Shown here one piece after another: positions 33,767-64,000 of a stretch of 64,000 bases of DNA (the first letter of the stretch is position 1; the number at the start of each line of letters is the position of its first letter). A model generated the notes under the pieces. It did not search any database. It was not told the origin of the DNA and was given only the letters and a program-made list of their open reading frames with translations. Where the stretch lies: NCBI GenBank assembly GCA_037189525.1, contig JBBCJC010000002.1, positions 704,001 through 768,000 of the forward strand, read 5' to 3'. Source of the stretch: Gemmatimonadales bacterium (lineage in GTDB: Bacteria > Gemmatimonadota > Gemmatimonadetes > Gemmatimonadales > GWC2-71-9). A program made the translations under genes and the position numbers.

Positions 33767-33923
33767 TGGGGTCTCCGTGGTACGAGTGTCGGGAATCTGC
33801 GGGTCCCGGGTCGGGTCGCAAGGGGTGCGACCTTGCTGCCAAGGTGATACTGTCTAACGTTAGGAGCCCGGCCGCGCGCGATGCCGGGTCCCTCCGATCA
33901 ACTTTGCTGTGGAGTTGGTGACT

Positions 33924-38217: not shown

Positions 38218-38226
38218 TCGTCCGGA

Positions 38227-45408: not shown

Positions 45409-45605
45409 GCCTGCAACATCGGATCAGGCCGGCCCCGTGTCTAGTCCGTCCGATGTCCCGCGGTTGCGGATGTGGAAGCCGGTGTCGTCATGGCGATGCA
45501 GGAGGGAACGCTCCGGGTACCGGAGGCCGGTGTCCCGACCGGCCGGACGATGCATGCGGGCGCGATGCTCTGGACGCCCGGCCCGAACGTTCCGAGATTA
45601 TCGAG

Positions 45606-48600
45606 ATGACTCCTCCGCCCGCAGGTACCCGAATTCGAAGGCGCGAGGCCGGCTCTTCGTTCGATCGGGCTACCGGGTCGGTCCATCGCTTCGTTTTTGG
45701 CCGATTTCGCTCCCGCCGGTTGGAGGTTGAGGACGCTCATTTCAACCTGAACAGCGCGGTGCTGCTGCCGGACGCCGTCGGCGCGGACGACAGTGATCAG
45801 AATCACGTCACCGGGCTCGGCGTGCTCCGGACCGCCTACCTGCATGCGCAGCGGCATGACGCCGACCGTCTCCTGGTAGCCGGGCACACGGATCGCTTGG
45901 GGTCCGATGCCGACAACCTGACCCTCTCGCGACGACGCTCCGCCAACGTACTCCACCTGCTCCTGGGCGACCGGGATGCCTGGGCCGCGTCGTCCCAGCA
46001 ACAACACAAAAATGAGGACATCCAGGAGATTCTGGCCTGGGTCGACCGCACGTTCGGCTGGGGGTGTCATCCGGGGCCTGTCACGGCCGCGATGAACGAT
46101 CAGACCCGGGCGGCCCTCCGCGCTTTCAAGACGCGCTACAATACCGAGTTCGACCCCGATATCACGGTCACGGGATCGATCGACGTACCGACGTGGAAGG
46201 CGTTCTTCGACCTGTATTTCCTGGAGCTCAAGGGGATGCTCCGGACCGACGACGCCGGACTCGCCACGCTCCGGTCGGGGCTCCGCTTCGTCGATGACGG
46301 GAAGAAGGGGGTCGGCTGCGGTGAGCACCATCCCGTCACCGCCGCTCATACCAGTCGAGTCGACCGCCGAGTCGAACTCCTGTTCTTCGATGCTGCCGAG
46401 CTACCGCTGCTCGACTGCCACCCGTCGGCGACGGGATGCGTACCCGGCAAATGTGAGATCTATCCGCCCGGCGCGGTATTCGACGTCGATCCGATTCCGG
46501 CCGACGATTGGACCGTGCTGCCGGTGCACCTTCGGCTCCAGTGGAAGGGGCCGGATGAGTCCGAGCACGATTTTCCCCCGGGCTTTCCGGTCATCGTCGT
46601 TCCCGGCGGAGGGGGCGCGGAGATCAACGCGCAAGTCGGCGCCGACGGCCGGCTGACCTTTTCGCTCGACCGCCGGCTCGGCTCGTTCACGCTCCGATTC
46701 GAGACGGCAAACGCGGCCTTCATCACCTCGCCGCCCGGCGGGGTGACCGGCGTCGAGGAGATGGTCTTCGAGCCCGAGCTGGCGCAGCAGATCCGCGACC
46801 GGCGGCGGTTCTGGAAGCTTCCCGCGCAGTGGTCGCTGCGCATGGCGGATTGGGCGGGTCCTACGGAGGGCGATGCCACCACGGCCGTGTTTGCCAGCCA
46901 CGAGTTCACCGGCCTCGACGATGCGTCCAAGACGGTGGGCAAACGGTCGGCGCCGGTCCGCTTCGTGCTCGATCCGCATTGGCAGTTCCTCCGCCTCACC
47001 TATTTCGACCGCTTTCACAAACGGCGGATCAGCATTCCGCGCAGTGTGGTCGAAGGGTTTCTCACGGTCGCGGCCGGCGATGCGACCGATGCCGTTCCCG
47101 ATACGGTCAGCAATTGGACCGTCAACACCGACGAGGACGCGCGGCAGTGTCTGCCGTGGGTGGTGCAACGGGACGGGTCCGGCGCCGCGGCGCCCAAGCC
47201 CGACGGGGCCGGCATGCTCAGGTACCGATCGATGGCCGGTACCTTCATCGAGTCGAGCGCGCCCAACACGCGGCGGCTCGTAACGGTGAGTAGCTCGGGT
47301 GATCCCACGCCGGCCAGTCCGTTCATCAATGCCGGGTTGGGCACGTCGGTGGACCTCAACATTCCCAATGCGGATCGGCTCCGGTTCTACGACCTGCCGG
47401 AGATCTGGAAATCGCGCGGGTACTTCGGGCGGCTCACCAACGCCGCCGGCCCGGGGCCGGTGGCCGATAATTTCTACGACCAGCTTGCCACGCAACCGAC
47501 CAGCGACGAGCGCCCGCTCTCGTTTTCGCTCGACGATATCGTGCTCTTCGAGGGGACGGACACCGGCGCGCTGAGCCGGCCGCTGCCCTGGAACGGCGGG
47601 ACCGATCGGCTGGCGCTCTTCGTCAACACCTTCGCGCCGCCGTCGGGCACGGTTACGTCCGATCCGTTCCAGGGTCTGGGCCTCTACAAGCCGGATACGG
47701 CAGGGAATCTGCCGTTCCTCAGCGAACGGGTGGCCGACACGGCGAATCGCAACTACGTCGCGGACTACCCCGATTGGGTCCGGCTGGTGGTCACGGGCGG
47801 TAATCTGTTCGACTGCTTCGATCGGCGGACGCCGGACGCCGCCGGACAGACGGTCGGAGCGCGGGCGGCGGTCCGGTTCGTGGATCTGACGCCGGCCGGC
47901 GTCGGCGTGGCGCCAGGCGCGCAGAAGGTGGCCCGCTCGCCGACCGCGGTCCGATTCTTCGTGGTGCAGCCGCTTTTCGACGCCATCACGCCGTACGCCT
48001 CGCCCGACCGGCTCTTTCCGAACAGTCGGGTCGGTCGTTTCGATATCGTGCTGCTCCGGTGCTGCGACGCCGACGGTACGACGGAGATTGCCCTCAACCT
48101 CCACTATTTCCGGTTCGCCTTCACCTTCACGCAGCAAGCGATGGAGAACGGCGCGCCGGTCCCGAACCACGCCGCGCCCGCCAATCTCGCGGGGCCGGTC
48201 GCCGCGCAGTTTCAGATCGACGCCATCGGCAACACGCTGGGGCGCTGGAACGGCCAGGACGGCCGCGGGGGCGGCGTCGATATCGTGCCGGCGACGGGCT
48301 CCGCGCTGCGGGTAATGGCGCGCTGGTTCGCGCAGGCGCTGCCGACGGGCGTATCGCACTTCCTGCTCCGCGTCTACCTTCCCGATACCCGCGCATTCAT
48401 GGGCAGCTTCGACGGCGACGGCGAGATGGGCCTCGAGGACAATCCGGGGGCCTGGGTGACGCTGGCGGGTCCGCCGCTCAGCACCAATCCCGATGTCAGC
48501 GCGACACCGGGCGACAGTCTCGTCATTGCGCACGAAGCGGGGCACGGCAACGGCTTGACCGACGAGTATACCGAGTCGTCCCGGACGGCGACCTATCTCT

Positions 48601-49505
48601 CGCAGCCGGGGATCTACAGTTTCTCCCCCGGCTCGCCCTACGATTCCGATGGGCGCTCGATGATGCTCTCCAATCGGAACGTGCGGGCCCGGCATTTCTG
48701 GCACGCGGCCGAGTGGGTCCGCCGGCAGGTGCCCGGCAATCCACCGCTTCAGGTGCGCCAGCGGATCGGCGGCACCACCTACGACTATCGGTTGCCCCCG
48801 CATCCGACGCTCGGCCGCCACTATACCACCGAGCCCTGGCACCAGGCCGCCGATACCAGCCGGGGTACGCGGGGACGGTACGATGCGTTCCTCTACACCC
48901 TCTCGCAGGACGAGTTCAGCCACCAGGTGATGGCAGGCGGTCACTTTGCCGGTGGCGCGCCGGCAGACGCGTTCGACGGCATTCTGATCATCGTGGTCAA
49001 GCTGCGGGTCCGCTTTCACGAAGATCTGTCGACGGTGGTCCGACCCGGGCTGGTGCAGATGACGCGGACCATCCAGGCCGCTTTCAACGACAAATGGATG
49101 GCGTCCGGGACGGCGCGAGGACGGCGGTTCGAGCGGTGCCTGCTGCATTTCGCGCCACGGTATGTGGTCCGCAACTATCCGGGCGACGCCTCTGACGCGA
49201 CCTTCCGGGGTCGTTACCATGCCGGCATGGGGATCACCAATCAGGCCGGGCTCGACAGCCGCGTCTCGAACCTGGTGGCGACGCACGGGATCCATTTCCG
49301 GATTCGCACCGCGGCAAGCGGCACGACTGCCTGGCAATCGTCTCATCTCCGGCTGGTGGTCGACGGTGGTCCGGGTGTCGCGCCCGGACTCGAAACAGCC
49401 TTCGGCGAAATGCTGGGCATCGATGGCACGCCCATCTCGGCGGCCGCGAGCTTCGTCGGGGTGGCCCAGGCGGTGTTGAGCGATTGTCGAGTCGTCGCGT
49501 TGTGA
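45606..49505 (+). CDS. About 1300-aa candidate T6SS effector: OmpA/PGBD N-terminus, C-terminal zinc metallopeptidase
   Basis: HFNLNSAVLLP; GHTDRLG..NLTLSRRR; GCGEHHP..DRRVE; HEAGHGNGLTDEY plus SMM Met-turn; start placed at MTPPPAG. Confidence 0.8.
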   Translation: MTPPPAGTRIRRREAGSSFDRATGSVHRFVFGRFRSRRLEVEDAHFNLNSAVLLPDAVGADDSDQNHVTGLGVLRTAYLHAQRHDADRLLVAGHTDRLGSDADNLTLSRRRSANVLHLLLGDRDAWAASSQQQHKNEDIQEILAWVDRTFGWGCHPGPVTAAMNDQTRAALRAFKTRYNTEFDPDITVTGSIDVPTWKAFFDLYFLELKGMLRTDDAGLATLRSGLRFVDDGKKGVGCGEHHPVTAAHTSRVDRRVELLFFDAAELPLLDCHPSATGCVPGKCEIYPPGAVFDVDPIPADDWTVLPVHLRLQWKGPDESEHDFPPGFPVIVVPGGGGAEINAQVGADGRLTFSLDRRLGSFTLRFETANAAFITSPPGGVTGVEEMVFEPELAQQIRDRRRFWKLPAQWSLRMADWAGPTEGDATTAVFASHEFTGLDDASKTVGKRSAPVRFVLDPHWQFLRLTYFDRFHKRRISIPRSVVEGFLTVAAGDATDAVPDTVSNWTVNTDEDARQCLPWVVQRDGSGAAAPKPDGAGMLRYRSMAGTFIESSAPNTRRLVTVSSSGDPTPASPFINAGLGTSVDLNIPNADRLRFYDLPEIWKSRGYFGRLTNAAGPGPVADNFYDQLATQPTSDERPLSFSLDDIVLFEGTDTGALSRPLPWNGGTDRLALFVNTFAPPSGTVTSDPFQGLGLYKPDTAGNLPFLSERVADTANRNYVADYPDWVRLVVTGGNLFDCFDRRTPDAAGQTVGARAAVRFVDLTPAGVGVAPGAQKVARSPTAVRFFVVQPLFDAITPYASPDRLFPNSRVGRFDIVLLRCCDADGTTEIALNLHYFRFAFTFTQQAMENGAPVPNHAAPANLAGPVAAQFQIDAIGNTLGRWNGQDGRGGGVDIVPATGSALRVMARWFAQALPTGVSHFLLRVYLPDTRAFMGSFDGDGEMGLEDNPGAWVTLAGPPLSTNPDVSATPGDSLVIAHEAGHGNGLTDEYTESSRTATYLSQPGIYSFSPGSPYDSDGRSMMLSNRNVRARHFWHAAEWVRRQVPGNPPLQVRQRIGGTTYDYRLPPHPTLGRHYTTEPWHQAADTSRGTRGRYDAFLYTLSQDEFSHQVMAGGHFAGGAPADAFDGILIIVVKLRVRFHEDLSTVVRPGLVQMTRTIQAAFNDKWMASGTARGRRFERCLLHFAPRYVVRNYPGDASDATFRGRYHAGMGITNQAGLDSRVSNLVATHGIHFRIRTAASGTTAWQSSHLRLVVDGGPGVAPGLETAFGEMLGIDGTPISAAASFVGVAQAVLSDCRVVAL

Positions 49506-50800
49506 GGCGCCGGATCGGGTGGCTTGCCGCGGCGCTGACGGTCGGCGCTGGATGTACACGAGGAGCGGAGATGGAACAGTCCTTCAAACGACTTTCGGGA
49601 ACCGCGGTGGAGTCGGTGCGGAGCATCGATCCGATTGTCTCGATCCTGGATCAGGCCGTGGTGACGGTAACGCCGGCCCCGTCCGAGTCCGGCGATTTCG
49701 TCCGCCCCTTGGGCAATCCCGAGCAGAACTCGCGACTCGGTCGGGCCCTCCCGGACGGCGCCTGGAAGCTGCGCTGGCGCGCGCCCCTCCGCGGCTTAGG
49801 CACTCCGCTCGACGTGCTGAGCGCAGGTGACCGCGTCGTGGTGCGTGCCGAATCGGGCTGGATGCTGTTCGATGCGGACGGTGAGATGCTGGCGCGCGGC
49901 CCCGCGGGCGACGGCACCATGCTGCTCGATCCGAACGACGGACTCCTGCTCGGCCTCGATGGAGCCGGATTTCTGGCAGGATGGGGTCTCGCCGACGGGG
50001 CTCGGCGCTTCCGGATGATCCTCACCATGCCCGGCGACCTGACCTACACCTTCATCGATCGACCCGGTGATCTCTACCTCGCCTCGGTCGAGCGGCGTTT
50101 GCCGCCGCATACACCCGGAGTGCCGAGTGCGGCGTTCGTCGAGCGGATCACGCTGGGCGCGCCGATCGCGGTCGACGACAACGGCACGCTCCGATCCGCG
50201 GCGCGGCTCGGCGATCTGGTGCGCGAAGTCTCGGACCTCCAGATCGCGCGCCGAGGCGAGACCTTCGTGCTGGCCGTGACCGATACGCTCTACCGTGCCG
50301 ACCTGGCGCTCAGGCTCTCTGCCCGGCTGACGGGATCGTTTCGCCCGCTAGCACTGAGCCTGGACGAGCAGGGTCGTGCGCACCTGGTGGTCATGACGGC
50401 GACAGGGCCCGCCCTGTGGGTGGTCGAGCCGGACGGGCGCCGAGTGGTCGACCGGTCCGTGCCGCTCACGTCCAAACGGCTCCTGGCGCCGCCCATCATC
50501 AGCCATCACCACCAGATCTATCTGGTCTACGCTGATCGGATCACGGCGTTCGAGTCCGACGGGCGTTCGTGGTGGGATACGAGATTGGATACCATTGCTG
50601 GTGCCGTGCTGACGGCCGATGACCAGTTGCTGGTGGCGGCGGGCCGGCAGGTGCTGGCGTATCGCGGCGCTGCGGCCGCGGTGCTTGCCACGGCGCTCGA
50701 CCCGTTGGTGACGCCGCCGATTCTCTCGGGGACCGGCCTCCTGCTGGTGGCGTCGGCCGATGCGCTCTTTGCCTACGAAGCAACCGGAAAGCGGCCATGA
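49502..50800 (+). CDS. Lipoprotein with PQQ-like beta-propeller features, candidate immunity protein
   Basis: GTGA overlap with the effector stop; MRRRIGWLAAALTVGAG-C lipobox; LRWRAP and W-terminated strand repeats. Confidence 0.7.
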   Translation: MRRRIGWLAAALTVGAGCTRGAEMEQSFKRLSGTAVESVRSIDPIVSILDQAVVTVTPAPSESGDFVRPLGNPEQNSRLGRALPDGAWKLRWRAPLRGLGTPLDVLSAGDRVVVRAESGWMLFDADGEMLARGPAGDGTMLLDPNDGLLLGLDGAGFLAGWGLADGARRFRMILTMPGDLTYTFIDRPGDLYLASVERRLPPHTPGVPSAAFVERITLGAPIAVDDNGTLRSAARLGDLVREVSDLQIARRGETFVLAVTDTLYRADLALRLSARLTGSFRPLALSLDEQGRAHLVVMTATGPALWVVEPDGRRVVDRSVPLTSKRLLAPPIISHHHQIYLVYADRITAFESDGRSWWDTRLDTIAGAVLTADDQLLVAAGRQVLAYRGAAAAVLATALDPLVTPPILSGTGLLLVASADALFAYEATGKRP

Positions 50801-51129: not shown

Positions 51130-51177
51130 GCACAGGGCGCGGCCGTCCGGGTGGATTCAAAACGATCGAGAATCTCC

Positions 51178-52322: not shown

Positions 52323-53468
52323 ATGCCAACATATAGTGTCGATCTCACGACCGAGCGTGGCGTTTCGCGGGTGTCCTTTACCCTCGATGACGACCGCCCG
52401 TTAGGGCTGCAGATCAATCATATCCTCGAGGAGTTTCGCCAGCGGGGACTGGTGCTCAAGGGTGGTCCCGAGGACGAGTTGATGGTCGCCTGGAACGGGC
52501 GGCCGGTCGATGGCAGCAGGACGCCGCATGCGCTCGGCATCTCGCCGCTGCACGCCATCGAGTTGCGGATGCGGCCGCGGAGCGCCGCCGTGGTCGCCCG
52601 GGTCGAACCCCCCGCGGCGCCCTTCCTGTCGAAGACATCGTACCTGGCGCTGGTGACGGCCTGTACCGGCGCGGCGATCGCGTGGATCGTGACGGCCACG
52701 CTGTTCACGGATCTGGGAGATGTGCTGACCAGCTACGGGACGCTAGACGTCGTGGTGGCCACCGTGCTCGGTGCGGCGGTCGGGGGTGTCCTGCTAGGTG
52801 CGCTTGCGCGGGCTCGAAGCGAGTCGGTGGTGGTTGGGCTGGCGGCGGGAATCGGGCTCGGAGCCGTCGGGGCGGCCATGGGGGCATTCTCGGGTCTCGT
52901 GATTGCGGGGTACGCCGGGCTCGGCGACTCGCGCCAGAGCTTCATCGTCGCGCGGTTGGTGACCTGGGCGTTGGCCAGCGGCTTCCTCGGCATGTTCCTG
53001 GCCTTTCGCTGGGTACGGACGCATGCCGTGGTACCGTTCGAATCGCTGCTCTGGGGCTGTGGAGCCGGTATCGTCGCCGCCTTGCTGCTGTCGTTGCCGG
53101 GGCCGTCCGATCTCTGGCAATTGCTGGCGTTTCTGGTGGTCGGCGCGGGGACGGGCGCCGGTGTCGTCCATCCCGTCATGGTCCGTTCGCTCGGCGTCAT
53201 CGAGCTGGAGCGCACCGGTGCCGGAACCGTGGGCCTGCTGGGTCATCGGGGCTGGATGGTGCCCTTCCACGGAACGGCTGCGGTCGGTCGAACCCTGAAT
53301 GTGCGCAGCGAGCAGGGACGCTGCCAGGTGGCTCTGACCGGGGCGGCGGCTGAACCGGTCACCCTGGGCGGACGTGCGGTCAGCGGCCCGCACGACCTGC
53401 TCAATCAGGATACCATCACTATCGGGTCGCGCGTCTTCCTCTACCGCCGTTTTCCGGAGGCGAGCTAG
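52323..53468 (+). CDS. Membrane protein: ubiquitin-like (YukD/EsaB-like) domain, about 6 Gly-rich TMs, degenerate FHA-like domain
   Basis: WNGRPVDGSRTPHALGI..IEL ubiquitin-like pattern; six hydrophobic segments; VGR..VTLGGRAV..LLNQDTITIG FHA-like tail. Confidence 0.65.
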   Translation: MPTYSVDLTTERGVSRVSFTLDDDRPLGLQINHILEEFRQRGLVLKGGPEDELMVAWNGRPVDGSRTPHALGISPLHAIELRMRPRSAAVVARVEPPAAPFLSKTSYLALVTACTGAAIAWIVTATLFTDLGDVLTSYGTLDVVVATVLGAAVGGVLLGALARARSESVVVGLAAGIGLGAVGAAMGAFSGLVIAGYAGLGDSRQSFIVARLVTWALASGFLGMFLAFRWVRTHAVVPFESLLWGCGAGIVAALLLSLPGPSDLWQLLAFLVVGAGTGAGVVHPVMVRSLGVIELERTGAGTVGLLGHRGWMVPFHGTAAVGRTLNVRSEQGRCQVALTGAAAEPVTLGGRAVSGPHDLLNQDTITIGSRVFLYRRFPEAS

Positions 53469-54754
53469 TGAAAGGCGCGGCGGGTGTCGCACTCTGCCTG
53501 ACTCTCTTCGGGGCGTCGGGTCTGGTCGGGCAGGACGGCGACGTGACGCTGCTGCGCTGCGGCGAGCGATCGGCTCGGCCGTGTCTGATGACCACCGTCT
53601 CACTTCGTCCGGAGCAGGCTCGTCAGTTGGCGGGGCGCTCGCCGGACAGCTTGAGCGTGGCCTGGCGGGCGCGATTCCTGCGGGACACCAGCCTGGCGGG
53701 CCGCGCGCAGAGAACCTGGTCGAGCGCAATGCGCGGAAATCGGGTGCTGATCCTGGTCGATGTCAGCGGCAGCATGAAAAATCTGGGGATCGGGACCGCC
53801 AAGCTCGTCGTCGGAAACTTTCTCCGTACGCTCGATTCGCTGCCCGCCGGGTCGGTCCGGGTGGCGGTTGCGCCGTTCGGCAGTGTCAGCGTTGCCGACC
53901 GGATTGCCGCTGCCCGATTCACGACGCCCGACTCGGCCCGCCACGCGATCGACCGGCTGCCCAATCCGGATCGGGAGAATACCGGGCTGTATAGCGCGGT
54001 GGAGGCAGGCGTCGAGCGGCTGTCGCGTGAATTGGCGGAGGCTGGCGAGGGCCTCGGTGCACTGGTCGTGCTGACCGATGGCGACAACGACGTCGGGCGG
54101 CCTGGAGACGATCCGGGATTGCTGGCGGGGACCGCCGGATTGACCCGTGCCGCGCAGGCCGTGGATCAGAGTGCGGCATTCACCACCATCGTCGGGATCG
54201 GCAATCTCAACGCGCAGGCGTTGAGAACTCTTGCGGGCCCCCGAGGGCGGGCGTATCTCAAGAGCTTGGACGCGTATGAGCTGGCCCGTCCGCTGGCGGA
54301 AGTGCGCGACCTGTTTGCGATCAGCTGGGAAGTGCTGTTCCCGTTGTCCGTCGCGCGCGAAGGTCTCGGGCGAGGGCCTGCGTCGTTGGTGCCTTCGCTC
54401 GGCGCCGTGGCGGGAACGGCATTGTGGCGGCCGCCCGTGATTGCATTGCCCGCGTTCGTCGGCGTGGCGTCGTCGGCATTGCTCCCGAGCGGCGTTGGAG
54501 CGGCTCCGGTCGGTTTCGTTCTGGATCGGCGCTGGCCGCTCGCGTTGATGGCGGGGGTGCTTCTGTTCTTGTTATGGTTCGTGGCTCCCCGGTTGTTGTG
54601 GCCATCATCGCCTGCGGTGGCGCTTGCGCAGGGTGCGCCGACACCGCCCAAGGTGGTGTCACCGCCCGCGGGTGGATTGCGAGCCGATGTGAAAGAAGTC
54701 GCGCCGCGCCGGCCGTCGGACACGACGGCGGCCAAAGCGCGGCGCGCCCAATAG
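53468..54754 (+). CDS. Exported vWA-domain protein with C-terminal TM anchor
   Basis: Signal peptide; MIDAS DVSGSM, T (NTGLY), LTDG; C-terminal TM; TAGTG coupling to the upstream gene. Confidence 0.85.
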   Translation: MKGAAGVALCLTLFGASGLVGQDGDVTLLRCGERSARPCLMTTVSLRPEQARQLAGRSPDSLSVAWRARFLRDTSLAGRAQRTWSSAMRGNRVLILVDVSGSMKNLGIGTAKLVVGNFLRTLDSLPAGSVRVAVAPFGSVSVADRIAAARFTTPDSARHAIDRLPNPDRENTGLYSAVEAGVERLSRELAEAGEGLGALVVLTDGDNDVGRPGDDPGLLAGTAGLTRAAQAVDQSAAFTTIVGIGNLNAQALRTLAGPRGRAYLKSLDAYELARPLAEVRDLFAISWEVLFPLSVAREGLGRGPASLVPSLGAVAGTALWRPPVIALPAFVGVASSALLPSGVGAAPVGFVLDRRWPLALMAGVLLFLLWFVAPRLLWPSSPAVALAQGAPTPPKVVSPPAGGLRADVKEVAPRRPSDTTAAKARRAQ

Positions 54755-54800
54755 CAGCGTAGCAGTGAGACAATCCTATTCTCTTTGAGGGGAGCCAGAC

Positions 54801-55271
54801 ATGCCAGTCGTGAAGGTCACGCGGGCCGGGGTCAAAATGGCGCCGCGACAGGTGCCGACCGAGACCACCGCGACCATTCTGCCGATGACCGTCGACCGGG
54901 TCGGGCAGGAGGCGCTCGAGGACGAGCAGCCCACCAAGGTGTCGAGTCTGGCCGAAGCGTTCGAGAAGTTCAAACCGGCGCTCGATTTCAAAGCCAACGT
55001 GGGCGACGAGGGAACCGAGTTTGCGGCGGACCTCGAGTTCAAGAGCCTCAAAGACTTCGACCCCAAGCGGGTGATGACGCGCGAGCCCGGCAAGCGGAAC
55101 GACGTCGCCGATCTGCAGAGTCAGATCGATCTGCTGCACCGGATGCGCGAGCGGTTCGCCGTGTTGTCGGTCCGGCGGGCCTGGGACAATCCCGAGCAGC
55201 GGAAAGAAATCATCGAAGCGGTGGCCGAGTTCCAGGATGCGTTGCGGAAGATCTCCGGAGGTGACGCGTGA
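54801..55271 (+). CDS. tssB: T6SS contractile sheath small subunit, Bacteroidota-like
   Basis: SLAEAFEKFKP..LEFKSLKDFDPK and C-terminal WDNPEQRKEII helix; GTGA overlap with tssC. Confidence 0.8.
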   Translation: MPVVKVTRAGVKMAPRQVPTETTATILPMTVDRVGQEALEDEQPTKVSSLAEAFEKFKPALDFKANVGDEGTEFAADLEFKSLKDFDPKRVMTREPGKRNDVADLQSQIDLLHRMRERFAVLSVRRAWDNPEQRKEIIEAVAEFQDALRKISGGDA

Positions 55272-56602
55272 GCGAGGTCAAGACCGCGCAGGACATCATC
55301 GCCAAGAAGGGCGCGAGCAAGGCGATCGAGGAAATCTTCAACGTGATCCATCCGGCGCCCTCCAAGACGGCGCTCAAGGACATTTTCACCGCCGAGTCGG
55401 CGTCGCAATTCCTCAAACGGGTAACCGACTTCTCGAGCCTGCTGTCCGCCGAAGACAGCTACGATCAAGCGCTCAAGAAACTCGATGCCCAGCTCAAGTC
55501 GCTCGAGTCGACCCGCGACGAGGTGCTCAAGCAGATCTACGAGAAGATTCGCCCGATCGAGCGGAGCTACCGTGAAATCCAGCTCTTCTTCGAGAACGCG
55601 GAGGTTCGCGACAGCGTCCAGCGTCCGCCGGTCGAGTTCTTCATTTTCAACGCCGACACTCGTGCGGTCACGAGCGACGTCAACAGCTCCACCGTGCAGG
55701 CCGTCGACGAGTTCGTCCAGAGCCGCAACGACAGCTTCAACTTCCGCCAGTTCATCTGCAACATGGTGCTGCCGGGATACGTGCCGGATAATGTCCGGAA
55801 GCGGTTCGAGGACATGGCCAACAAGTGGGGCATGCTGCTGATCGGCGATCTCAAGGACGAGCTGTCCTTCAAGTCGCTCTCCGATCAGTTCCGGACCGAT
55901 GGCGGCGCGTACGAGTTTCTCAAGCGGCCCGAGGATCGTGCCGCGGCCGACGTGGTCATCGCGGGTTTCGTCAAGCTGCGCGACAAGCACTGGTTCGAGG
56001 CGGCGGACGACGACAGCGAGAATGCGGACCTATACGGCCCGTCGTCGCTTCTGTTTGCCGGGTCGCTCGCCCGGACGGATCGGACCACGGGCGGCGGTAT
56101 TGCGCAGGGACCGGTCGGGATGATCTTCGGACAGATTCGCGGCCCCGAAAAAGCCCGGATCGAGCCGCGGATTTCTCAGATGGAGCATCTGTCGATGGAA
56201 CGACAGGTCGTCACCATTATCCGGAACGAAGACAATCAACTCTGCTTCGTGGGCAGCCGGACCCAGGCCGAAGATCCGAAGGGCGTGCTCAAGTTCTTCA
56301 CGTCCTACCGGGTGCTGCGTTACCTGGAGCGCCGGATTGCCGTCTATCTCCGGCGGGTGGCCGAGCAGCGGCTCACGCGCGATCTGGTCAAGGAACAGGT
56401 GCGCAATCCGATCGAGGAGTTCCTCGAGGACGAGCTCAAGAAGGGAACGATCTACAAGTACGACATCGATATCGACATGGACGAGGACAAGTTTGCGCAG
56501 GGAGTCCTCGACATCAAGCTGGAAGTCTTGCCGGTTGGTCCGGCCGAGACCTTCGAGCTCAAGATCGATACGCCCGACTTCAAGAAGGACGGTAAGGAGT
56601 AA
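55268..56602 (+). CDS. tssC: T6SS contractile sheath large subunit (DUF5458-like, subtype iii-like)
   Basis: IERSYREIQLFFEN; MVLPGY; sheath-like C-terminus (RVLRYLERRI..IKLEVLPVGPAE). Confidence 0.8.
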   Translation: MSEVKTAQDIIAKKGASKAIEEIFNVIHPAPSKTALKDIFTAESASQFLKRVTDFSSLLSAEDSYDQALKKLDAQLKSLESTRDEVLKQIYEKIRPIERSYREIQLFFENAEVRDSVQRPPVEFFIFNADTRAVTSDVNSSTVQAVDEFVQSRNDSFNFRQFICNMVLPGYVPDNVRKRFEDMANKWGMLLIGDLKDELSFKSLSDQFRTDGGAYEFLKRPEDRAAADVVIAGFVKLRDKHWFEAADDDSENADLYGPSSLLFAGSLARTDRTTGGGIAQGPVGMIFGQIRGPEKARIEPRISQMEHLSMERQVVTIIRNEDNQLCFVGSRTQAEDPKGVLKFFTSYRVLRYLERRIAVYLRRVAEQRLTRDLVKEQVRNPIEEFLEDELKKGTIYKYDIDIDMDEDKFAQGVLDIKLEVLPVGPAETFELKIDTPDFKKDGKE

Positions 56603-56616
56603 CGGCGGAGGATTGC

Positions 56617-57009
56617 ATGGCCGATGACGAGGGCCGGGCCGACGATGTCGGCGGGGTGAATCCGGACGGGTCGCCCAAGCGCGATCTGCGGTACAGCAGT
56701 CATGAGGATCGCTCGGTCCGGGTCGATCGCGAGCTGGACGGCACCGGTCGCCTGGCTCGTGGTGATCGTACCAAGATGTCGGTGCTCAATTTCTCGTCGC
56801 GTCACCCGGTCCGCACCGAGCGCGATCCGGAGTTCACCTTCCGCCCCGCTCCGGCCGCTGCCTCGGCGCCGCCGGCTGCGGAGGTTCCGGCTCCCGCCGC
56901 GTCGGAGGCCAAGGCGCCTGACGATGCGGCGGGATCGACGGCTCCACAGGAGTCGGCCGATCGATCGCCGTCCGTGATGGATCGGGTGAAACATCTGTTC
57001 GGGTTTTAG
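56617..57009 (+). CDS. 130-aa hypothetical protein inside the T6SS operon
   Basis: GGAGGA RBS; Ala/Pro linker; C-terminal amphipathic VMDRVKHLFGF. Confidence 0.65.
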   Translation: MADDEGRADDVGGVNPDGSPKRDLRYSSHEDRSVRVDRELDGTGRLARGDRTKMSVLNFSSRHPVRTERDPEFTFRPAPAAASAPPAAEVPAPAASEAKAPDDAAGSTAPQESADRSPSVMDRVKHLFGF

Positions 57010-57036
57010 GTCTCTCGTCAACGCATCGGAGCTGCC

Positions 57037-57477
57037 ATGGCCACGTATAACCGCGTCAAAGTCAAAATCGATTCCGTCGAGTTTCGTCCGGTCGAGGCCA
57101 AGTACACCATTACGCGCAATGCCAACCAGGTTGGTCGTCGGGTCGGCGACTCGCTGATCGGCCGGGTCGAAGTCTGGATGGACGCCAGCGTGCTGGACAA
57201 CCTGCCGCAGTCCGCTCAGATCGAACTCTGGAAAATCGCCACCGAATCCAAGGACCCGCTCCATAAGGTCGAGGTGACGTGGTACCTCGATGAAGCGGAC
57301 AAAGTGCTGCATGCGGTCGAGTTCATGGGCTGGATTGCCGCCTTCGAGGTCGGGAATCCCCAGGCCGACGTCTCGGGCGGCGGTGTCAGCTCGGTGCAGT
57401 TCAAGAACCTGTTGCGGCTCGAACTCGCCGTCGTGGTCGACGAGTCGAATGTGAGCAAGCACAAGTTCACCAAGTAG
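57037..57477 (+). CDS. tssD: T6SS tube protein Hcp/TssD (subtype iii-like)
   Basis: 146 aa, beta-rich; YTITR..GR..GRVEV; position between sheath and baseplate genes. Confidence 0.72.
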   Translation: MATYNRVKVKIDSVEFRPVEAKYTITRNANQVGRRVGDSLIGRVEVWMDASVLDNLPQSAQIELWKIATESKDPLHKVEVTWYLDEADKVLHAVEFMGWIAAFEVGNPQADVSGGGVSSVQFKNLLRLELAVVVDESNVSKHKFTK

Positions 57478-57507
57478 CGAGCGCCCTTCGGCGCGCGGGA
57501 CCGCATC

Positions 57508-57900
57508 GTGCCTTCGATTGCCCTTCCTCTCCGGATCGATGCGACCGGTTCGCTCGTCCGGCAGGATGATTTCGACGCGGTCGTCGGAATCATCGGCAAG
57601 ATGGCCGGAACGACCTCGACCACCTGGCCCCACGCCAGGTGGTTCGGGTTGTTCGAAGCCTTCATGGAAGCCGGGCGCCGTCAGCAGCAGGATCACGAAT
57701 CGCTCAAGGACGCCATCAACCTCGCCCTCCGCGAACTCGGTGTGCAGCAGTTCCGGGTCCAGGCGGTGACGACGGTGCGGAGCGATCACGGTTTCGGTCA
57801 CCGCCACTTCCGGATCACCATGACCGACGCCGAGGGTCGCTCTCGTTTTGCCGAGTTGGATGGAGAGGGCCGCCGCGCCGAGACGGAATCGCCATCATGA
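57508..57900 (+). CDS. tssE: gp25-like baseplate protein
   Basis: Size, IALPLRI start, SLKDAINLAL helix, position before vgrG. Confidence 0.6.
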   Translation: MPSIALPLRIDATGSLVRQDDFDAVVGIIGKMAGTTSTTWPHARWFGLFEAFMEAGRRQQQDHESLKDAINLALRELGVQQFRVQAVTTVRSDHGFGHRHFRITMTDAEGRSRFAELDGEGRRAETESPS

Positions 57901-59744
57901 AAGTCACCGTCTTCGTCACGATCGGCGATCTGGTCCTCCGCAACAGCGAACTCGACGTCCTCGAGGTCGTGCAGGAACTCGGTCAGCATACCACCTGCCG
58001 GATCGAGTTCATTCGGGATTCCGCGCTGGATGTTTCCCTCGATCAGCTGCTCCGTGACGAAGTGGTGGTGACGCTCAAGGCGGAGGGCGGCCAGATCATC
58101 CCGATCTTCCGAGGAACGATCGGCGACGGGGTGCAGAGCCACCTGCTCAACTATGGCTCGCGTTTCCGTCTCGAGGCCACCTCGGAGTCCGAACGGCTCG
58201 AGTACGTCAATACCGCCTACTTTCCAAACAGCACGTTCGGCGACGTGGCCCAACAGTTCGGGGTCCGGATCGACGGATCGATCCGCCGCGACCAGACGCC
58301 ACTCGACCTGGTCCAGTGGAACGAGACCGAGTTTGCCTTCCTGAAACGGCTGGCCGACGAGCACGGCGCTTTCCTGGTCACTCACGGCCCGCAACCGGAG
58401 ATCCGGACCGAGTTCAAGGATGAGGGTTGGGAACTCATCTGGGGCGACAGCCTGCTCGAGGCGAGCGTGCGGGCGCGACCGACCAGTCATGGCGTGGCGG
58501 GCGCGAGTTACGATCCGCTCACCAAGCACACCCATCGGCACGCGGGCGTCAGGCAGAATCCGCCATCGTTAGGCGGCGCCGCGAAGATCGTCAATGCCGT
58601 GACCGACCTGGCGCGGCAGATGGGCGGCGACCCCGGGCTGGAGTTTCCGAGCGCGCGGGAGACGACGCATCAGAGTTTCAAGACCATTCTGCGCCAGGAG
58701 AGCGAACGGGCTCTCGGAAGCGCGGTGCTGGTCGAGGGACACAGCGTCAAAGTCGGTCTGGGCGCCGGTGACCTGGTCGAGTTGGTCGGCGGGGTCAACT
58801 TCACCCTGCCGACGACCGGCAAGCTCGGTCTCATCAAAGTCGTCCATACCTTCCAGGATCAGCACTACAGCAACCGGTTCGTGGCCACGCCGTGGAAGAC
58901 GTTTACCAACCTCGAGCGTCCCCCGACCCCGCGGGAGCGCACCGTGGTGACGGCGGAAGTGGTCGAGACGGCGACGGATCCAGAGAAGCTGGGACGGATT
59001 CGCATCGCCTACCGATGGCAGACCGGCGCCGATATGACCGGTTGGGCCCGGATCGCGGCCCCGCACGCGGGCAACGGGCGCGGCATCATGTTCCTTCCGG
59101 AGGTCGGCGATGAGGTGCTGGTGGCCTTCGACGACGGCGATCCGGAACACCCGATCGTGATCGGCGCGCTCTGGAACGGCCGGGACCGCCCGCCCGAGGT
59201 TACCGAAAAGAACACCGCCAAGCGGATCATCACCCGGTCGGGCAGCACGATTCAGTTGCTCGACGACGAAGGGAAAGAAACGGTCGAGATCTTCACGCCG
59301 GAGGGGCGCTGTCTGGTCCAGCTCACTAACCAGGGTGGGCATCCGGTCGTGACCGTCTATTCCGATGGCGACATCGCGCTGGAGGCCAAAGAAGAGATTC
59401 GGGTCAAGTGCAAAAAGCTGGTGCACGACGTGGAAACCGATGTAATCGTCAAAGCCGGTGGTGACGTTTCGGTGGATGCTGCGGCCAATGCCGTCATCAA
59501 GGCCAACGTCGACGCGGCGCTGTCGGGAACCAATGCGATTCTCAAAGGCGCCGCCATGGTCGAGTCGGTCGCTGGCGGCGTCAACAACGTCGTCGGGGCC
59601 ATGGTGCAGATCCAGCCGCCCGGTTTCATGGGCAAACAGGTCAATCCCAAGTCGGTCTCGGTGCCCAATGTCGACGTCGGCTCTCGGCCGACGCCGCAAT
59701 CGGCTGATCCGGAGCGGACGGCGGATCCGGAGACGCCGCGATGA
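57897..59744 (+). CDS. vgrG: VgrG/TssI spike protein
   Basis: QWNETEFAFLKRLA; DPEKLGRIRI; WARIAAPHAG; FLPEVGDEVLVAF; IITRSG; beta-helix tail; ATGA overlap with tssE. Confidence 0.93.
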   Translation: MKVTVFVTIGDLVLRNSELDVLEVVQELGQHTTCRIEFIRDSALDVSLDQLLRDEVVVTLKAEGGQIIPIFRGTIGDGVQSHLLNYGSRFRLEATSESERLEYVNTAYFPNSTFGDVAQQFGVRIDGSIRRDQTPLDLVQWNETEFAFLKRLADEHGAFLVTHGPQPEIRTEFKDEGWELIWGDSLLEASVRARPTSHGVAGASYDPLTKHTHRHAGVRQNPPSLGGAAKIVNAVTDLARQMGGDPGLEFPSARETTHQSFKTILRQESERALGSAVLVEGHSVKVGLGAGDLVELVGGVNFTLPTTGKLGLIKVVHTFQDQHYSNRFVATPWKTFTNLERPPTPRERTVVTAEVVETATDPEKLGRIRIAYRWQTGADMTGWARIAAPHAGNGRGIMFLPEVGDEVLVAFDDGDPEHPIVIGALWNGRDRPPEVTEKNTAKRIITRSGSTIQLLDDEGKETVEIFTPEGRCLVQLTNQGGHPVVTVYSDGDIALEAKEEIRVKCKKLVHDVETDVIVKAGGDVSVDAAANAVIKANVDAALSGTNAILKGAAMVESVAGGVNNVVGAMVQIQPPGFMGKQVNPKSVSVPNVDVGSRPTPQSADPERTADPETPR

Positions 59745-59751
59745 TCCGGTC

Positions 59752-61482
59752 ATGAGCGAGTTCAAGAGCCTCCGTCCGCCCGAACGCAGCGCGACCGACA
59801 TTGCCCGGGAGCTGCGCGAGCACTTTACCCGGTCTCTCTATGAGGTGACGGGTGCGCAGGCCCAGCCCGATCCGGTGCTCGGCGCGCTCTTTCATGCGCT
59901 TGCCGTGCAGGTCGATCGGGTCTATCAGGAAGCGGATCAGGTATTCTTTGCGGCGGCGCTCGATGACCTGATTCGCGGTCTCGGGATGCCCGCACGGCTG
60001 GCTCGGCCGGCCCAGGCCGTGGTGCAGTTCTCTCAGCTGCAGGGCCGAGAGACGCTTGCTCCGGAGACGGAGCTGATCGGCTATCAGGCGACCGGTGCGC
60101 AGATCGTCTTTACCCCCGACGCGCCGGTCGACATTGCGCCGACGGAAATCGTCTTTGCCGGAGTTGCGGAGGCGGGACGCCTGTCGACCCTGCCGGGGGC
60201 GCGGTTGCCTTGGACCAATCAGCCGATCCTGCCCGGGAATTCGACGCCCATCGACCTCTCGCCGGCCGCCCCGACCCTGTTCCTCGCGTTTGAAACGGAC
60301 GCCGAACACCTGAGCCGGATCGGTCTCTACGTGGAGGCCGCCAGCCAGGCATCGCCCATCCTTGGGGTGCTGGCCCGGAGTCCGTGGCAGTTGCTCGACA
60401 ACCGCGGACAGGTCTCCGAACGCGGGGTGCTCCGGGCGTCTCGAACGCGTGGGGGTATGCAGCGGCTGGATTTCGTCAAAGACCGGCGGCCTGCGCTCGA
60501 GGATACCGGCACAATCGACCGTCTGGTCCCGCTGGTCGGCGGTGTTTACGGAGCAAGCGTATGGCTGATGCCCGAACTGACGCCGGATCGTCGCTGGCGT
60601 TCGGTGATCCCGCCGTCGATTGCCACGGCAGTGCCGCGGGTGCTTCCTCCCGGGCAGGAACGAGCGCTGGATCGCCAGCTGGCCTGGTTGCAGGTGCCTC
60701 TCCCGGCTGGCAGCCGCGGCGTGGCGAGCCAGATTGCCCGCATCGCGGTCAACTGTGTCACGGCGTCGAACATCGAAGCGTGGAACGAGCAGATCGACTT
60801 CGGCCGGATGGGCGCCGTAGTCAGCCACCGTCCGCTTGGCGCAACCGATCGGCATATCATGGGTGTGCTCGGTGTGACGGGTGAAGCCGGGACCCCCTAT
60901 CTCGATATCTCGGATCTGGAGGCGCCGGCCGGATCGGGGCGATACCGGTATCGGGGCAACGCCAGCTTCGAGTTCACCCCTGCCAAGCAGGCGAGCGGGC
61001 GCTTCGACGGCTACGGAATGATGCGACTCCTCTACTGCGACGGCGAAGGCGGCAACGGAATCGCGGTGGGGGAGATCAAGCAGATCCGGAGTGAGCTTGC
61101 CCGGAATCCGACGGCGCGGGTGGCCAGCCTGACGCCGACACGGGGCGGGGCGGCGCCGCCGGCATACAGCGATGCGCGCGACCGTTTCGCAGAGTTGCTC
61201 CGCACTCGCGAACGAATCGTGACCCCTGCCGATATCGAGATCGCCGCCAAGGCGACCGATCCCCGGATCGGCAACGTCAGCGTTACCAGCGCATCGCAGA
61301 TTACCGATACCGGGCTGGAACTGGTGACCGATGTAACGGTTTCGGTGTCGCCCGACGACTTCGCGGACCCGGAGGCGGAACTCGAACGTCTGCGGACCGA
61401 GCTGGAGCAATACCTCGGCGAACGCTGCATGATCGGGCAGCAAATCCGGGTCGCGATTGCCGAGGAGCGGCGCGCCTCATGA
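59752..61482 (+). CDS. tssF: Baseplate wedge protein TssF (gp6/baseplate J-like)
   Basis: DPVLGALFHALA; ARPAQAVV; VNCVTASN; GG..RERIVTPADIE. Confidence 0.8.
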   Translation: MSEFKSLRPPERSATDIARELREHFTRSLYEVTGAQAQPDPVLGALFHALAVQVDRVYQEADQVFFAAALDDLIRGLGMPARLARPAQAVVQFSQLQGRETLAPETELIGYQATGAQIVFTPDAPVDIAPTEIVFAGVAEAGRLSTLPGARLPWTNQPILPGNSTPIDLSPAAPTLFLAFETDAEHLSRIGLYVEAASQASPILGVLARSPWQLLDNRGQVSERGVLRASRTRGGMQRLDFVKDRRPALEDTGTIDRLVPLVGGVYGASVWLMPELTPDRRWRSVIPPSIATAVPRVLPPGQERALDRQLAWLQVPLPAGSRGVASQIARIAVNCVTASNIEAWNEQIDFGRMGAVVSHRPLGATDRHIMGVLGVTGEAGTPYLDISDLEAPAGSGRYRYRGNASFEFTPAKQASGRFDGYGMMRLLYCDGEGGNGIAVGEIKQIRSELARNPTARVASLTPTRGGAAPPAYSDARDRFAELLRTRERIVTPADIEIAAKATDPRIGNVSVTSASQITDTGLELVTDVTVSVSPDDFADPEAELERLRTELEQYLGERCMIGQQIRVAIAEERRAS

Positions 61483-62387
61483 CGGCCGTGATGCCCGACC
61501 TGGCGGCGACCTATCGGGGGGTGCGACACACCCTCGATTCGGCCGTGCCCGCCTTGCTCAGGCTCGGAGTTGATCCCGATCGAATCATCCTGACGGCGGC
61601 GGGCGCCGGCTGGGTGCGCGGCACTATCGTGTCGCAGGAGCCGGCTCCGGGTGAGATCCTGTATCCGGAAACCCGGGTCACACTCGGCGTGGCCGGAACT
61701 GGGGCGCTCGAATCGGTGCCGTTCCCGATGCGCGACAGTGCCGACGGGGAGTTCCGCATCGATCGGCTCTTCAGCCTGTTCGACAACCATTTCCTTCGCC
61801 TGACGCACCATCTCCGGGCGGCGGGTGGCCTGCTCGATCTCCATCCGGATGACAGCGAAGGTGCCAACCGATGGATCGTCGAGATCTTCCGGTTGAGTTC
61901 GGCGCCGTGGCCGAGGGAACGCTGGTACGATGTTGCGCGGCTTTTGCCGGCGTTGCATCGGATAGCGGGCCGGGTCGATGGTCCCGCGCTGGCGCTCAAG
62001 GCGGTGTTTCGGATTCCGGCCTCGCCGATTCGTCTGGTGGCCGGGATTGCGCCGGTTCCGGACGATCGTCGCACCCGACTTGGTGTTCGGAACGGACGAC
62101 TGGGGGTGGACGCATTGATCGGCGACGGGATTACCGCGGCCGTCGGCGTCGAAATCGATATCGGGCCAGTCGATCTTCGCACCTACCGCAGGTTGCAGAC
62201 CGCGGCCGAGTATCGCCAGCGCCAGGCGCTCTATCGGCTGGTGCTTCCGGCCCATCTGCAGCATGACGTGCGTGAACGTTGGATCGTCGGCGACCGGCGC
62301 GATGCGGCCGTCCTGGGCGATTCCGATCGTGAGGCGGCGCTGGGCGTCAACAGTTACCTGGGTTCGCCCGGGAGGAGTGCAGCGTAA
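61479..62387 (+). CDS. tssG: Baseplate wedge protein TssG
   Basis: LLPALHRIAG..LKAVF; RLGVDALIGD; IDIGPV; LVLPAH; ATGA overlap with tssF. Confidence 0.75.
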   Translation: MTAVMPDLAATYRGVRHTLDSAVPALLRLGVDPDRIILTAAGAGWVRGTIVSQEPAPGEILYPETRVTLGVAGTGALESVPFPMRDSADGEFRIDRLFSLFDNHFLRLTHHLRAAGGLLDLHPDDSEGANRWIVEIFRLSSAPWPRERWYDVARLLPALHRIAGRVDGPALALKAVFRIPASPIRLVAGIAPVPDDRRTRLGVRNGRLGVDALIGDGITAAVGVEIDIGPVDLRTYRRLQTAAEYRQRQALYRLVLPAHLQHDVRERWIVGDRRDAAVLGDSDREAALGVNSYLGSPGRSAA

Positions 62388-64000
62388 TGGAGCGTGATCC
62401 GTACTTCCGCTCGGTCAACTGGACGACCGGGATGTTGCTGACCCCGGAGCATTTCCTCCGACAGGATCGGTATGTCGAGGAGCAGGTTGCCTGGTTGCTC
62501 CGCTATTGCCTGTCGGGGACGGGCCTGGTCGGCGGCGGCGTTCGGCTCGATGCGGTGGAGCAGGGGCTGGCCAAATTCGATCCGAAGATCGAACTGGTCA
62601 ACGACGGCGATCGCCTGCGCATCACGGTACTCCGGGCGCGCGGCATCACGCCGAACGGAGAGATCGTCGAGGTCGACGAGTCCCGGCCGTTGCATGGCGA
62701 AGTCCGGCGGGGCGATCTGGCCGGCGTCAGCGAGTTGCTGGTCTATGTCGTTCGGATGCCCGAGAAGGAGCCCGATCCGGAGTCGGTTGGCGCCGACCCC
62801 GGCAATCCCAATCAGGCGGCGCTCAATCGGATCCGCTACGAGGTCCAGCTGGGTATCACTGCGGAACTGGGCCCGGTCTCCATGGCCGTCGCTCGCTTGC
62901 GGCGAGCGTCCGAATCGCTCGGCTTCGAACTCGACGGGCAGTACATCCCGCCATGCGCATCTTTGATCGCGCACAGCGCGTTGCACAATGCCGCAACCCG
63001 GATCCAGTCAGAAGTTCGGTTGCTGAGCAATGAGTATCAGCTGGTTCACGAGCGCGCGGGACATTTTGCCGACCGGACCGCGGCGCGCGGGGTCGATGTG
63101 CGCAACGATCTGGAAATCCGGGCGTTCGTGGAGCGCGCCGTGCTGGCGCTCGAGACAGCGGCGTACGAGACGGCTGATCTCGCCATTCCGCCGGTGCGAT
63201 TCTTCCAGCAGATCGAACGCGCCAGCCGGCTGATTGCCCTGGCTCTCAACCTCAGCCCCTCGACGCGACAGTTCTTCAAGGACTTGGGCCAGGTCGACGG
63301 CGGCTACACCGAGTTGCTCGATGCGGAGCAGGGCCTGCTGGCCGTGCAGCGGGAACTCGACCGGCGGGAAGAACTGCGGCCGCTGGTGGTCCGGTCGACT
63401 GACACGTTGCAGCGGCTCCGCAGGCTGGTCGACGCACTGGCGGGCAAGTACGTCGATTACCGGCAGAACCGGAACATCGAGTCGATCCGCTTCATGCTGG
63501 ATCGCGACGGCGAGCATTTCTACGAAGCCGTCACCTCGCCCTCGCATCCGCAGCGCGATGGCGACCTGCTCACCTTCGTCTTCACGCAGCTCGAACTGAG
63601 CGGCCGTCACGAATATCGCGTCGTGTTGACCGGTGATCCGCGAGCCAGCGCGCAGTGGGCCGTGGGCCAGGAACTGAGCGTCACGCTGCGTGTCAACGCC
63701 TCGGGTGGACCACGAGCGCCGATGACCCGGTCGGTGATGTGCGAGGTCGAGGGGCAGCGCAACTTCGCGGTCAATTTCGATACCCCGCAAGATGTCGCGA
63801 CGATTGCAGGCCTGACGGTCACGGTGCAGCCTGGCCACGGGATTCGGGGCGCAGTGCTGTTCCGCCGCCGGCTGGGCATGGTCGGATCGGGCAGCGGTGC
63901 GGCAATGCCCCTGCCTTCGCCGCCTGTCGTCTCGGAACCGCCGGTGTCCGCCCCGATCCCGTCCGCCGAGACACCGGCGCCGTCTCGGCCGCCCAAGATC
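62387..64000 (+). CDS. tssK: TssK baseplate protein, partial (open past the window end; not in the ORF track)
   Basis: TAATG coupling; VNWTTGMLLTPEHF; RGITPNG; DGQYIPPC; frame open for 538 codons. Confidence 0.85.
   Translation, partial: MERDPYFRSVNWTTGMLLTPEHFLRQDRYVEEQVAWLLRYCLSGTGLVGGGVRLDAVEQGLAKFDPKIELVNDGDRLRITVLRARGITPNGEIVEVDESRPLHGEVRRGDLAGVSELLVYVVRMPEKEPDPESVGADPGNPNQAALNRIRYEVQLGITAELGPVSMAVARLRRASESLGFELDGQYIPPCASLIAHSALHNAATRIQSEVRLLSNEYQLVHERAGHFADRTAARGVDVRNDLEIRAFVERAVLALETAAYETADLAIPPVRFFQQIERASRLIALALNLSPSTRQFFKDLGQVDGGYTELLDAEQGLLAVQRELDRREELRPLVVRSTDTLQRLRRLVDALAGKYVDYRQNRNIESIRFMLDRDGEHFYEAVTSPSHPQRDGDLLTFVFTQLELSGRHEYRVVLTGDPRASAQWAVGQELSVTLRVNASGGPRAPMTRSVMCEVEGQRNFAVNFDTPQDVATIAGLTVTVQPGHGIRGAVLFRRRLGMVGSGSGAAMPLPSPPVVSEPPVSAPIPSAETPAPSRPPKI

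Follow-up and report, generated by a model that had tools for sequence, protein, structure and literature searches.

A type VI secretion system of Gemmatimonadota and Acidobacteriota, distinct from subtypes i and iii, with a candidate ubiquitin-like membrane hub

What could anchor a type VI secretion system (T6SS) in the cell if the membrane components of both T6SS-i and T6SS-iii are missing? The question is raised by a gene cluster at the end of a 64,000-nucleotide stretch of DNA (the window; C2:704001-768000, GenBank GCA_037189525.1, contig JBBCJC010000002.1) from a Gemmatimonadales genome of 4.65 Mb (98% complete; 66% GC). By its sequence, the cluster encodes a complete tail and baseplate, a dedicated Clp ATPase, an adaptor and variable cassettes, but no TssL, TssM, TssA, TssN, TssO or TssR. 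With a probability of about 0.6, we read it as a contractile, cell-anchored T6SS whose subtype is undescribed and is common to soil and water bacteria of the Gemmatimonadota and Acidobacteriota, with anchoring, ubiquitin-like (Ubl) and kinase steps as proposed below. By the features tested it is distinct from T6SS-i and from T6SS-iii, and it very probably deserves a subtype of its own.

The preliminary description of this DNA recognised a tightly coupled tss operon, and all of its open reading frames are in place on the + strand. They belong to a run of 14 genes, from 52323 to 68619, which crosses the window end and has intergenic gaps of -4 to 46 bp. The order is Ubl-TM-FHA (TM, transmembrane), vWA, tssB, tssC, orf130, hcp, tssE, vgrG, tssF, tssG, tssK, Clp ATPase, single-TM FHA and kinase; a convergent FHA-TM gene follows at the operon end. 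The downstream region, which the preliminary description had proposed to check for clpV, tssA and membrane genes, supplies a probable TssH, TM-FHA and FHA-TM proteins and a kinase, but there is no TssA in the genome. A split TssB/TssC sheath, Hcp, VgrG and PAAR are all encoded, as are TssE (weakly assigned), TssF, TssG, TssK and the Clp ATPase. Family assignment is firm for TssC, VgrG, TssG, TssK and Clp, at profile level for Hcp and TssF, and weak for TssE. Hcp, TssE and TssF have no meaningful Pfam match. The TssF profile matches Capnocytophaga TssF (hhalign 95.2%), and its tail is similar to a baseplate-J-like chain (E 4.9e-6), as had been read from the sequence; a weak PF17642 match occurs in three of 43 Hcp family members. 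The structural look-alikes of TssE in ESM-Atlas are gp25/sheath initiator proteins (0.89-0.92); hhalign against a T6SS-iii TssE gave no match, and the TssE family profile finds neither the T6SS-iii nor the T6SS-i loci. The Clp ATPase scores 904 bits as ClpB and 687 as ClpV1, and is the third copy in the genome (the others are 44% and 38% identical to it). The N-terminus of TssG (61479-61700) is PASTA-like, which is unusual in a cytoplasmic baseplate protein. Two divergent tandem hcp genes are found in several loci of Gemmatimonadaceae type and in most Acidobacteria loci (L021-L026, L046-L063).

Subtype was assessed by scoring family profiles against six Bacteroidota T6SS-iii loci and one T6SS-i locus. 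TssB, TssC, Hcp, TssF and VgrG score best against T6SS-iii; TssK prefers the single T6SS-i reference locus (46 vs 32 bits), and TssG is undecided. TssC is 21-24% identical to named T6SS-iii proteins, whereas these are 40-75% identical among themselves. A TssC search of 1.84 billion representatives returned 235 matches, among them a graded series of unnamed relatives; cluster look-ups for 20 of the deep relatives returned no taxon. For a quick TssC tree (LG+G4, 66 rows), the 149 new representatives were cut down to 39 (short sequences were dropped and iii-like ones thinned) and combined with the six named T6SS-iii references, three of six T6SS-i sequences and the sheaths of phage P2 and one other phage; ten near-duplicate locus rows were dropped, and no subtype ii, subtype iv or extracellular contractile injection system (eCIS) sheath was included. 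One clade (32 rows, SH-aLRT 93) holds the Gemmatimonadota and Acidobacteriota sequences in separate subclades, and all six named T6SS-iii proteins fall in a different clade (17 rows, SH-aLRT 98). Nesting in the T6SS-iii core was rejected (p-AU 3.3e-5, for a group named after the tree had been seen). Several TssC relatives of 555-613 aa (P0157, P0159, P0165, P0168, P0218, P0238-P0241) carry about 120-200 extra N-terminal residues and are possibly TssB-TssC fusions. Several unnamed deep clades (P0207-P0304), about 23-31% identical both to named T6SS-iii and to the Gemmatimonadota/Acidobacteriota clade, may include further undescribed subtypes.

The host is not a member of Bacteroidota; its nearest named TssC homologs are from Gemmatimonadales/Gemmatimonadetes (98% to 83% identity). 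TssL, TssM and TssA were not found in the host genome, and there is no VipB-type TssC; positive controls were detected. TssN, TssO and TssR were found in none of four carrier genomes, with a control plasmid detected, though very diverged forms could escape. No PKD protein occurs among the cluster proteins scanned by Pfam; no search aimed at the TssP, TssQ or TssJ families was made. The system has a PF17541-type TssC but is not T6SS-iii proper, because its TssC is too distant and lies in a separate clade and because TssN, TssO and TssR are missing. For these reasons, and because TssK scores better against T6SS-i, the earlier label 'Bacteroidota-type' was overstated; its tail is nevertheless nearer to T6SS-iii than to T6SS-i. 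The idea that the branch is divergent and may be a subtype of its own is borne out and extends to Acidobacteriota. The absence of VipA/VipB signatures holds for TssC, which has no VipB match, but TssB barely passes the VipA Pfam cut-off (25.8 vs 24 bits). The iii-like motifs are present in the window; as looser patterns, the TssB motif occurs in four of the six T6SS-iii loci, ERSYR..FFEN in one and [LIV]PGY, a weak motif, in five.

The preliminary description had missed the nature of the two genes at 52323 and 53468 and the link to ubiquitin-like conjugation. The products of these conserved genes, the Ubl-TM-FHA protein and the membrane-anchored vWA protein, make the best candidates for an anchor of a third kind; they are fused in frame in genome G104 and locus L064, and apparently in L065. 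The tied top matches of a fold search with the 52323 protein include EccD5; a match to this entry has been reported for TssN as well. A resemblance between the Ubl domain and the C-terminal domain of TssN had been suspected by eye; it is unsupported, as hhalign gave no match. T6SS-iii and the present system share a PF17541-type TssC, iii-like TssB, Hcp, TssF and VgrG and a ClpB-like TssH. Both are without TssA, TssL and TssM, and in each a TM protein bears a beta-grasp domain in the cytoplasm and a vWA protein is present too. They differ in phylum, in TssC and in the lack of TssN/O/R matches here. The Ubl domain is N-terminal here and is followed by six TM helices and an FHA domain, whereas TssN has five TM helices and then its C-terminal domain; the vWA protein is TM-anchored, whereas TssR is a lipoprotein; and only the Gemmatimonadota/Acidobacteriota system has kinase/FHA and E1/E2/RING genes. 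With T6SS-i and its PpkA/Fha1/PppA pathway it shares a kinase, FHA proteins, PP2C, DUF4123, PAAR and the TssK and TssG families, but not VipB, TssL, TssM or TssA. The type VII secretion protein EccD and YukD-like Ubl proteins likewise place an N-terminal beta-grasp domain before a TM bundle; EccD has ten TM helices instead of six and no added FHA domain, there are no ESX genes in the cluster, and the match is one of fold only.

The two halves of the 52323 protein are separate in Acidobacteria: the TM-FHA gene still precedes the vWA gene, and Ubl exists free, with about 86 aa; it is 27-32% identical to the Ubl domain of the window and has a C-terminal NG in every copy listed. In the Gemmatimonadota fusion a linker follows the Ubl domain, without NG at the corresponding place. 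The free Ubl gene lies inside an E1-RING-Ubl-E2 operon, usually with a kinase gene after it; in many acidobacterial loci there are also genes for a PP2C phosphatase and for a single-TM FHA homolog. Pfam finds ThiF (E 8e-11 and 1e-12) and UQ_con (27 bits, at the cut-off in two of three) in the cassette, with Prok-RING below the cut-off. The E2 residues HPN-HP-TGFVC are invariant (7/7). The LGC motif of E1 is conserved in all five rows printed, and its Cys we take, by analogy, to be a candidate catalytic residue. Hydrophobic helices at the N-terminus and two Cys-rich domains characterise the RING protein (L104, G301:C4:355400-358000; L046-L068). All parts of an E1-E2-RING Ubl system (C-terminal Gly, E1, E2 Cys and a RING below its Pfam cut-off) are thus present in these relatives. 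The host genome has no such system: no match to the acidobacterial E1, E2 or RING profiles was found in it, and E2 is absent from all five other Gemmatimonadota carriers. Prokaryotic tri-ligase and Bil/Bub operons also combine a Ubl with C-terminal Gly, a ThiF E1, a UQ_con E2 with Cys and a Prok-RING. The cassette differs from them by its tie to a T6SS, by its membrane-bound RING protein and by the absence of a JAB peptidase (looked for in the cassette, not genome-wide); in Gemmatimonadota the Ubl is fused and the enzymes are missing.

E1, RING, Ubl and E2 occur in all 11 mapped genomes: in nine they are divergent and adjacent, one genome has them 6 kb upstream, with E1 truncated at the contig end, and in one they lie on another contig. 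Fourteen further acidobacterial loci comprise nine with all four genes and five cut by locus ends. TssC, Ubl and E2 are found in the identical eight of 301 Acidobacteriota genomes; a further genome gave a weak Ubl match (E 8e-4). The survey of both phyla proposed in the preliminary description found 68 loci in species-representative genomes: 45 in Gemmatimonadota, 19 in Acidobacteriota and four under other taxon labels (Bacillota, Janthinobacterium or Acidimicrobiales), which are probably misbinned and are not counted as further phyla. The Acidobacteriota loci (about 53% identity) include Terriglobus and Granulicella, among them the cultured G. mallensis X5P3. Gemmatimonadota carriers are rare (6/301 genomes, three families), and only three of five genomes of the host genus carry the system. 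T6SS-i sheaths are present in 30 of 301 Gemmatimonadota genomes, none of them a carrier (0/6), and a search of IMG/VR gave only two loci, both weak and partial. Codon use is host-like, as stated earlier (codon adaptation index percentiles 4-96 among 3093 genes). No integrase or transposase, which had likewise been noted, is among the 28 proteins scanned by Pfam; elsewhere in the window genes were only called. Codon use and the phylum-separate subclades fit the idea that the system is long-resident, but its rarity in phylum and genus does not. Kinship of Gemmatimonadota with Bacteroidota in the Fibrobacteres-Chlorobi-Bacteroidetes (FCB) group, also invoked, would leave the Acidobacteriota carriers uncovered. 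One metatranscriptome run (share 0.06) gave two short contigs of depth 3, 267 nt on tssC with seven differences and 216 nt on orf130 with none; DNA carry-over is possible, and they are not counted as expression.

From the anatomy and co-occurrence observed, anchoring, conjugation and killing can be pictured as follows. Three proteins would form the anchor, namely the two FHA proteins with six TM helices and with one and, in the periplasm, the vWA-TM protein; OmpA/peptidoglycan-binding proteins would assist them. The most likely hub of the system is the TM-FHA/vWA pair. The cytoplasmic Ubl domain on the TM protein may serve as a hub for docking (or licensing) the baseplate, as the beta-grasp domain may in TssN and EccD. 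The Ser/Thr kinase and FHA domains, with the PP2C phosphatase in Acidobacteria, would switch assembly on and off. In Acidobacteria, the enzymes E1 and E2 and a RING E3 bound to the membrane would attach free Ubl; in Gemmatimonadota the attachment would be hard-wired by gene fusion. Free Ubl with ligases and fused Ubl without them would then be two routes that place one domain at the inner membrane. Candidate targets of conjugation are TM-FHA, the baseplate, and the sheath (for disassembly by Clp); effectors would be fired into neighbouring bacteria. Ubl tagging or docking may thus build or control the T6SS. That conjugation belongs to how the system works is possible, although we lean slightly against it. 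Equally tentative is the full proposal of a fifth subtype with a third independent anchor, in which assembly or firing is under E1-E2-membrane RING conjugation, enzymatic in Acidobacteria and permanent by fusion in Gemmatimonadota.

Several results weigh against this interpretation. The EccD match of 52323 is tied with SUMO/ubiquitin folds and has a whole-chain rmsd of 23.6, so that only a domain fold is common to 52323 and EccD. With hhalign, neither 52323 nor its Ubl domain has sequence homology to TssN (a profile of three rows), and the vWA protein does not match TssR. Neither a lipoprotein nor a channel for the outer membrane was identified. In the nine rows printed, the short N-terminus of acidobacterial TM-FHA lacks Lys, so that a link mimicking the Gemmatimonadota fusion would have to be N-terminal or of another kind. 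Because the carriers are kin, co-occurrence counts are not independent. The TssC tree leaves the root and the deeper branching unplaced, and a position as sister of T6SS-iii is not supported. In G298 (L086) and G222 (L087) there is a Ubl-less c12/TM-FHA/vWA/TM-FHA(/FHA) module with no sheath nearby, which indicates that the membrane module can stand apart from the T6SS; G036 has the module, with FHA, as a second copy (L088). It may be that the subtype is new but that the Ubl, TM-FHA, vWA and kinase proteins are a regulatory sensing module like TagQRST-PpkA-Fha1-PppA, the real anchor lying in unrecognised genes or missing. The sheath-free and second copies fit this, as do the dominance of FHA and kinase domains and the loci in which the module is not immediately before tssB (L016, L017, L018, L030, L036, L041, L045, L072). 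Yet no further conserved membrane genes are seen in the loci, and the Ubl-bearing form strictly tracks TssC; we regard a purely regulatory module as unlikely, if worth serious attention. When TssK 195-500 and the Ubl domain were predicted as a complex, the score was 0.02; it was counted neither way.

The acidobacterial E1-RING-Ubl-E2 operon could also be independent, for example an anti-phage operon of Bil/Bub kind, and merely travel with the T6SS island. Some bacterial Ubl operons are given a role in phage defence in the available part of PMC11601603, and E1 weakly matches PADLOC E1-E2 models. Such independence is nevertheless improbable: apart from the weak match mentioned, neither E2 nor Ubl was found in 293 TssC-negative genomes, T6SS and Ubl are kept together although unlinked in G349, and in another phylum a T6SS-operon gene carries a member of this Ubl family as a fused part. 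A Bacteroidota T6SS-iii gained by transfer, with TssNOPQR diverged past recognition, would account for the profile scores of the tail; parts of PMC10781749 describe TssN as a beta-grasp domain with a TM bundle, TssR as having a vWA domain, and TssO/Q/R as often hidden by divergence. The low TssC identity, the rejected nesting and a domain order and topology unlike TssN and TssR make it a very poor prospect. It is scarcely credible that the genes encode an eCIS or a tailocin released by lysis, even though no known membrane complex is present, the sole sheath that the TssC profile matches in the PDB is that of a pyocin (E 1.4e-4) and the tail of TssF is baseplate-J-like. A split sheath with TssK speaks against T6SS-iv and eCIS, and TssG, a ClpB-type ATPase and DUF4123 are present, while none of the cluster proteins scanned is a tape-measure, cap or lysis protein; that this is neither an eCIS nor a prophage tail had been argued before and stands.

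Surveys and an August 2026 review, as far as the sections available go, distinguish four T6SS clades, with T6SS-iii confined to Bacteroidota (PMC10781749, PMC4793230, PMC13098142, PMC13584744); the words 'ubiquitin' and 'vWA' do not occur in the corresponding part of PMC13584744. T6SSs on Gemmatimonadetes and Acidobacteria plasmids were typed as i4b in the part available of PMC9113992. The survey of PMC10781749 is described there as relying on gathering thresholds and on mandatory components, a plausible reason why the present system was missed. In the portions available, tri-ligase Ubl systems are placed in vWA-MoxR-FtsH conflict operons (PMC7159879) and bacterial Ubl operons are treated generally (PMC11601603, PMC11354881). 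A literature search (titles and abstract openings, mostly open literature, no supplements) returned no description of this subtype or of a T6SS-linked E1/E2/RING operon. Ubl-E1-E2-RING operons were reportedly listed by Burroughs et al. in 2011 for a few bacteria, one an acidobacterium; the cassette alone may therefore be already known. The system is missed by several standard profiles and is carried by two abundant soil phyla, and it would offer a third solution to the open question of how contractile tails gained membrane complexes. If the proposal is true, bacterial E1-E2-RING Ubl systems gain a role beyond phage defence, and a natural fusion points to a target. The predictions are testable, since Granulicella mallensis is a cultured and harmless carrier.

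Features of the T6SS locus and its surroundings (window positions; those above 64000 lie beyond the window)
Position	Strand	Feature	Evidence
33909..35786	+	'c12': zinc ribbon, one TM, PEGA, Sel1 repeats; conserved accessory	Pfam; 13/68 loci
39840..42239	-	799-aa protein, no known family; final gene of PAAR cassette; candidate effector	6/68 loci
42245..43975	-	OmpA-like + peptidoglycan-binding protein	Pfam; 8/68 loci
43978..45408	-	PAAR fusion protein, spike tip	PF05488 E 3e-24
45453..49505	+	Large OmpA-like protein, weak M6-metalloprotease motif; candidate effector; start uncertain	
49571..50800	+	PQQ-like beta-propeller; possible immunity protein	weak PF13360
51178..51732	+	DUF4123 effector adaptor	PF13503 E 1.8e-29
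52323..53468	+	Ubl domain (1-87), 6 TM helices, FHA-fold domain (289-378); candidate inner-membrane hub	
53468..54754	+	Signal peptide, vWA (DxSxS..T..D motif), C-terminal TM	
54801..55271	+	TssB sheath small subunit	PF05591 25.8 bits (cut-off 24); best score vs iii
55268..56602	+	TssC sheath large subunit	PF17541 76 bits (cut-off 25); tree
56617..57009	+	orf130, 130 aa, kept in Gemmatimonadota loci	31/68 loci
57037..57477	+	Hcp/TssD tube	Profile vs Capnocytophaga (iii) TssD, hhalign 86.5%
57508..57900	+	Probable TssE/gp25	Gene position; ESM-Atlas
57897..59744	+	VgrG spike	Phage_base_V/TIGR03361
59752..61482	+	TssF, baseplate-J-like tail	Profile comparison with iii TssF
61479..62387	+	TssG with N-terminal PASTA-like domain	PF06996 E 4.6e-12; PF03793 E 1.7e-4
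62387..64000 (end at 64027, just beyond window)	+	TssK, 546 aa	TIGR03353 E 2.4e-20
64033-66687	+	ClpB-like ATPase, probable TssH	
66696-67796	+	Signal peptide-TM-FHA protein	
67804-68619	+	Ser/Thr kinase	
68641-69834	-	FHA-TM protein	

The region 5' of the operon encodes DUF4123, the PAAR fusion, OmpA/peptidoglycan-binding proteins and large proteins without known family. Positions 45453-51732 form a variable insert (OmpA/M6-motif protein, beta-propeller and DUF4123), which is missing at the matching place in G124, a genome of the same genus. The 799-aa protein has no Pfam or NCBIfam match; its best ESM-Atlas score is 0.85, a lead only, with nothing at 0.9. In many relatives the c12 gene stands shortly before the Ubl-TM-FHA gene. 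Genes for an imelysin, a di-haem oxidoreductase and an M48 peptidase lie between c12 and the PAAR cassette (35816-39780). A second DUF4123 gene, 50% identical to that of the window and followed by genes without known function, is found at G000:C2:219153-223177 (-) and is a probable orphan effector island. Some 35-45 kb past the downstream end of the window, at G000:C2 about 801500-815000, there is a gene cluster judged by eye to be NRPS/PKS-like, which starts in L002.

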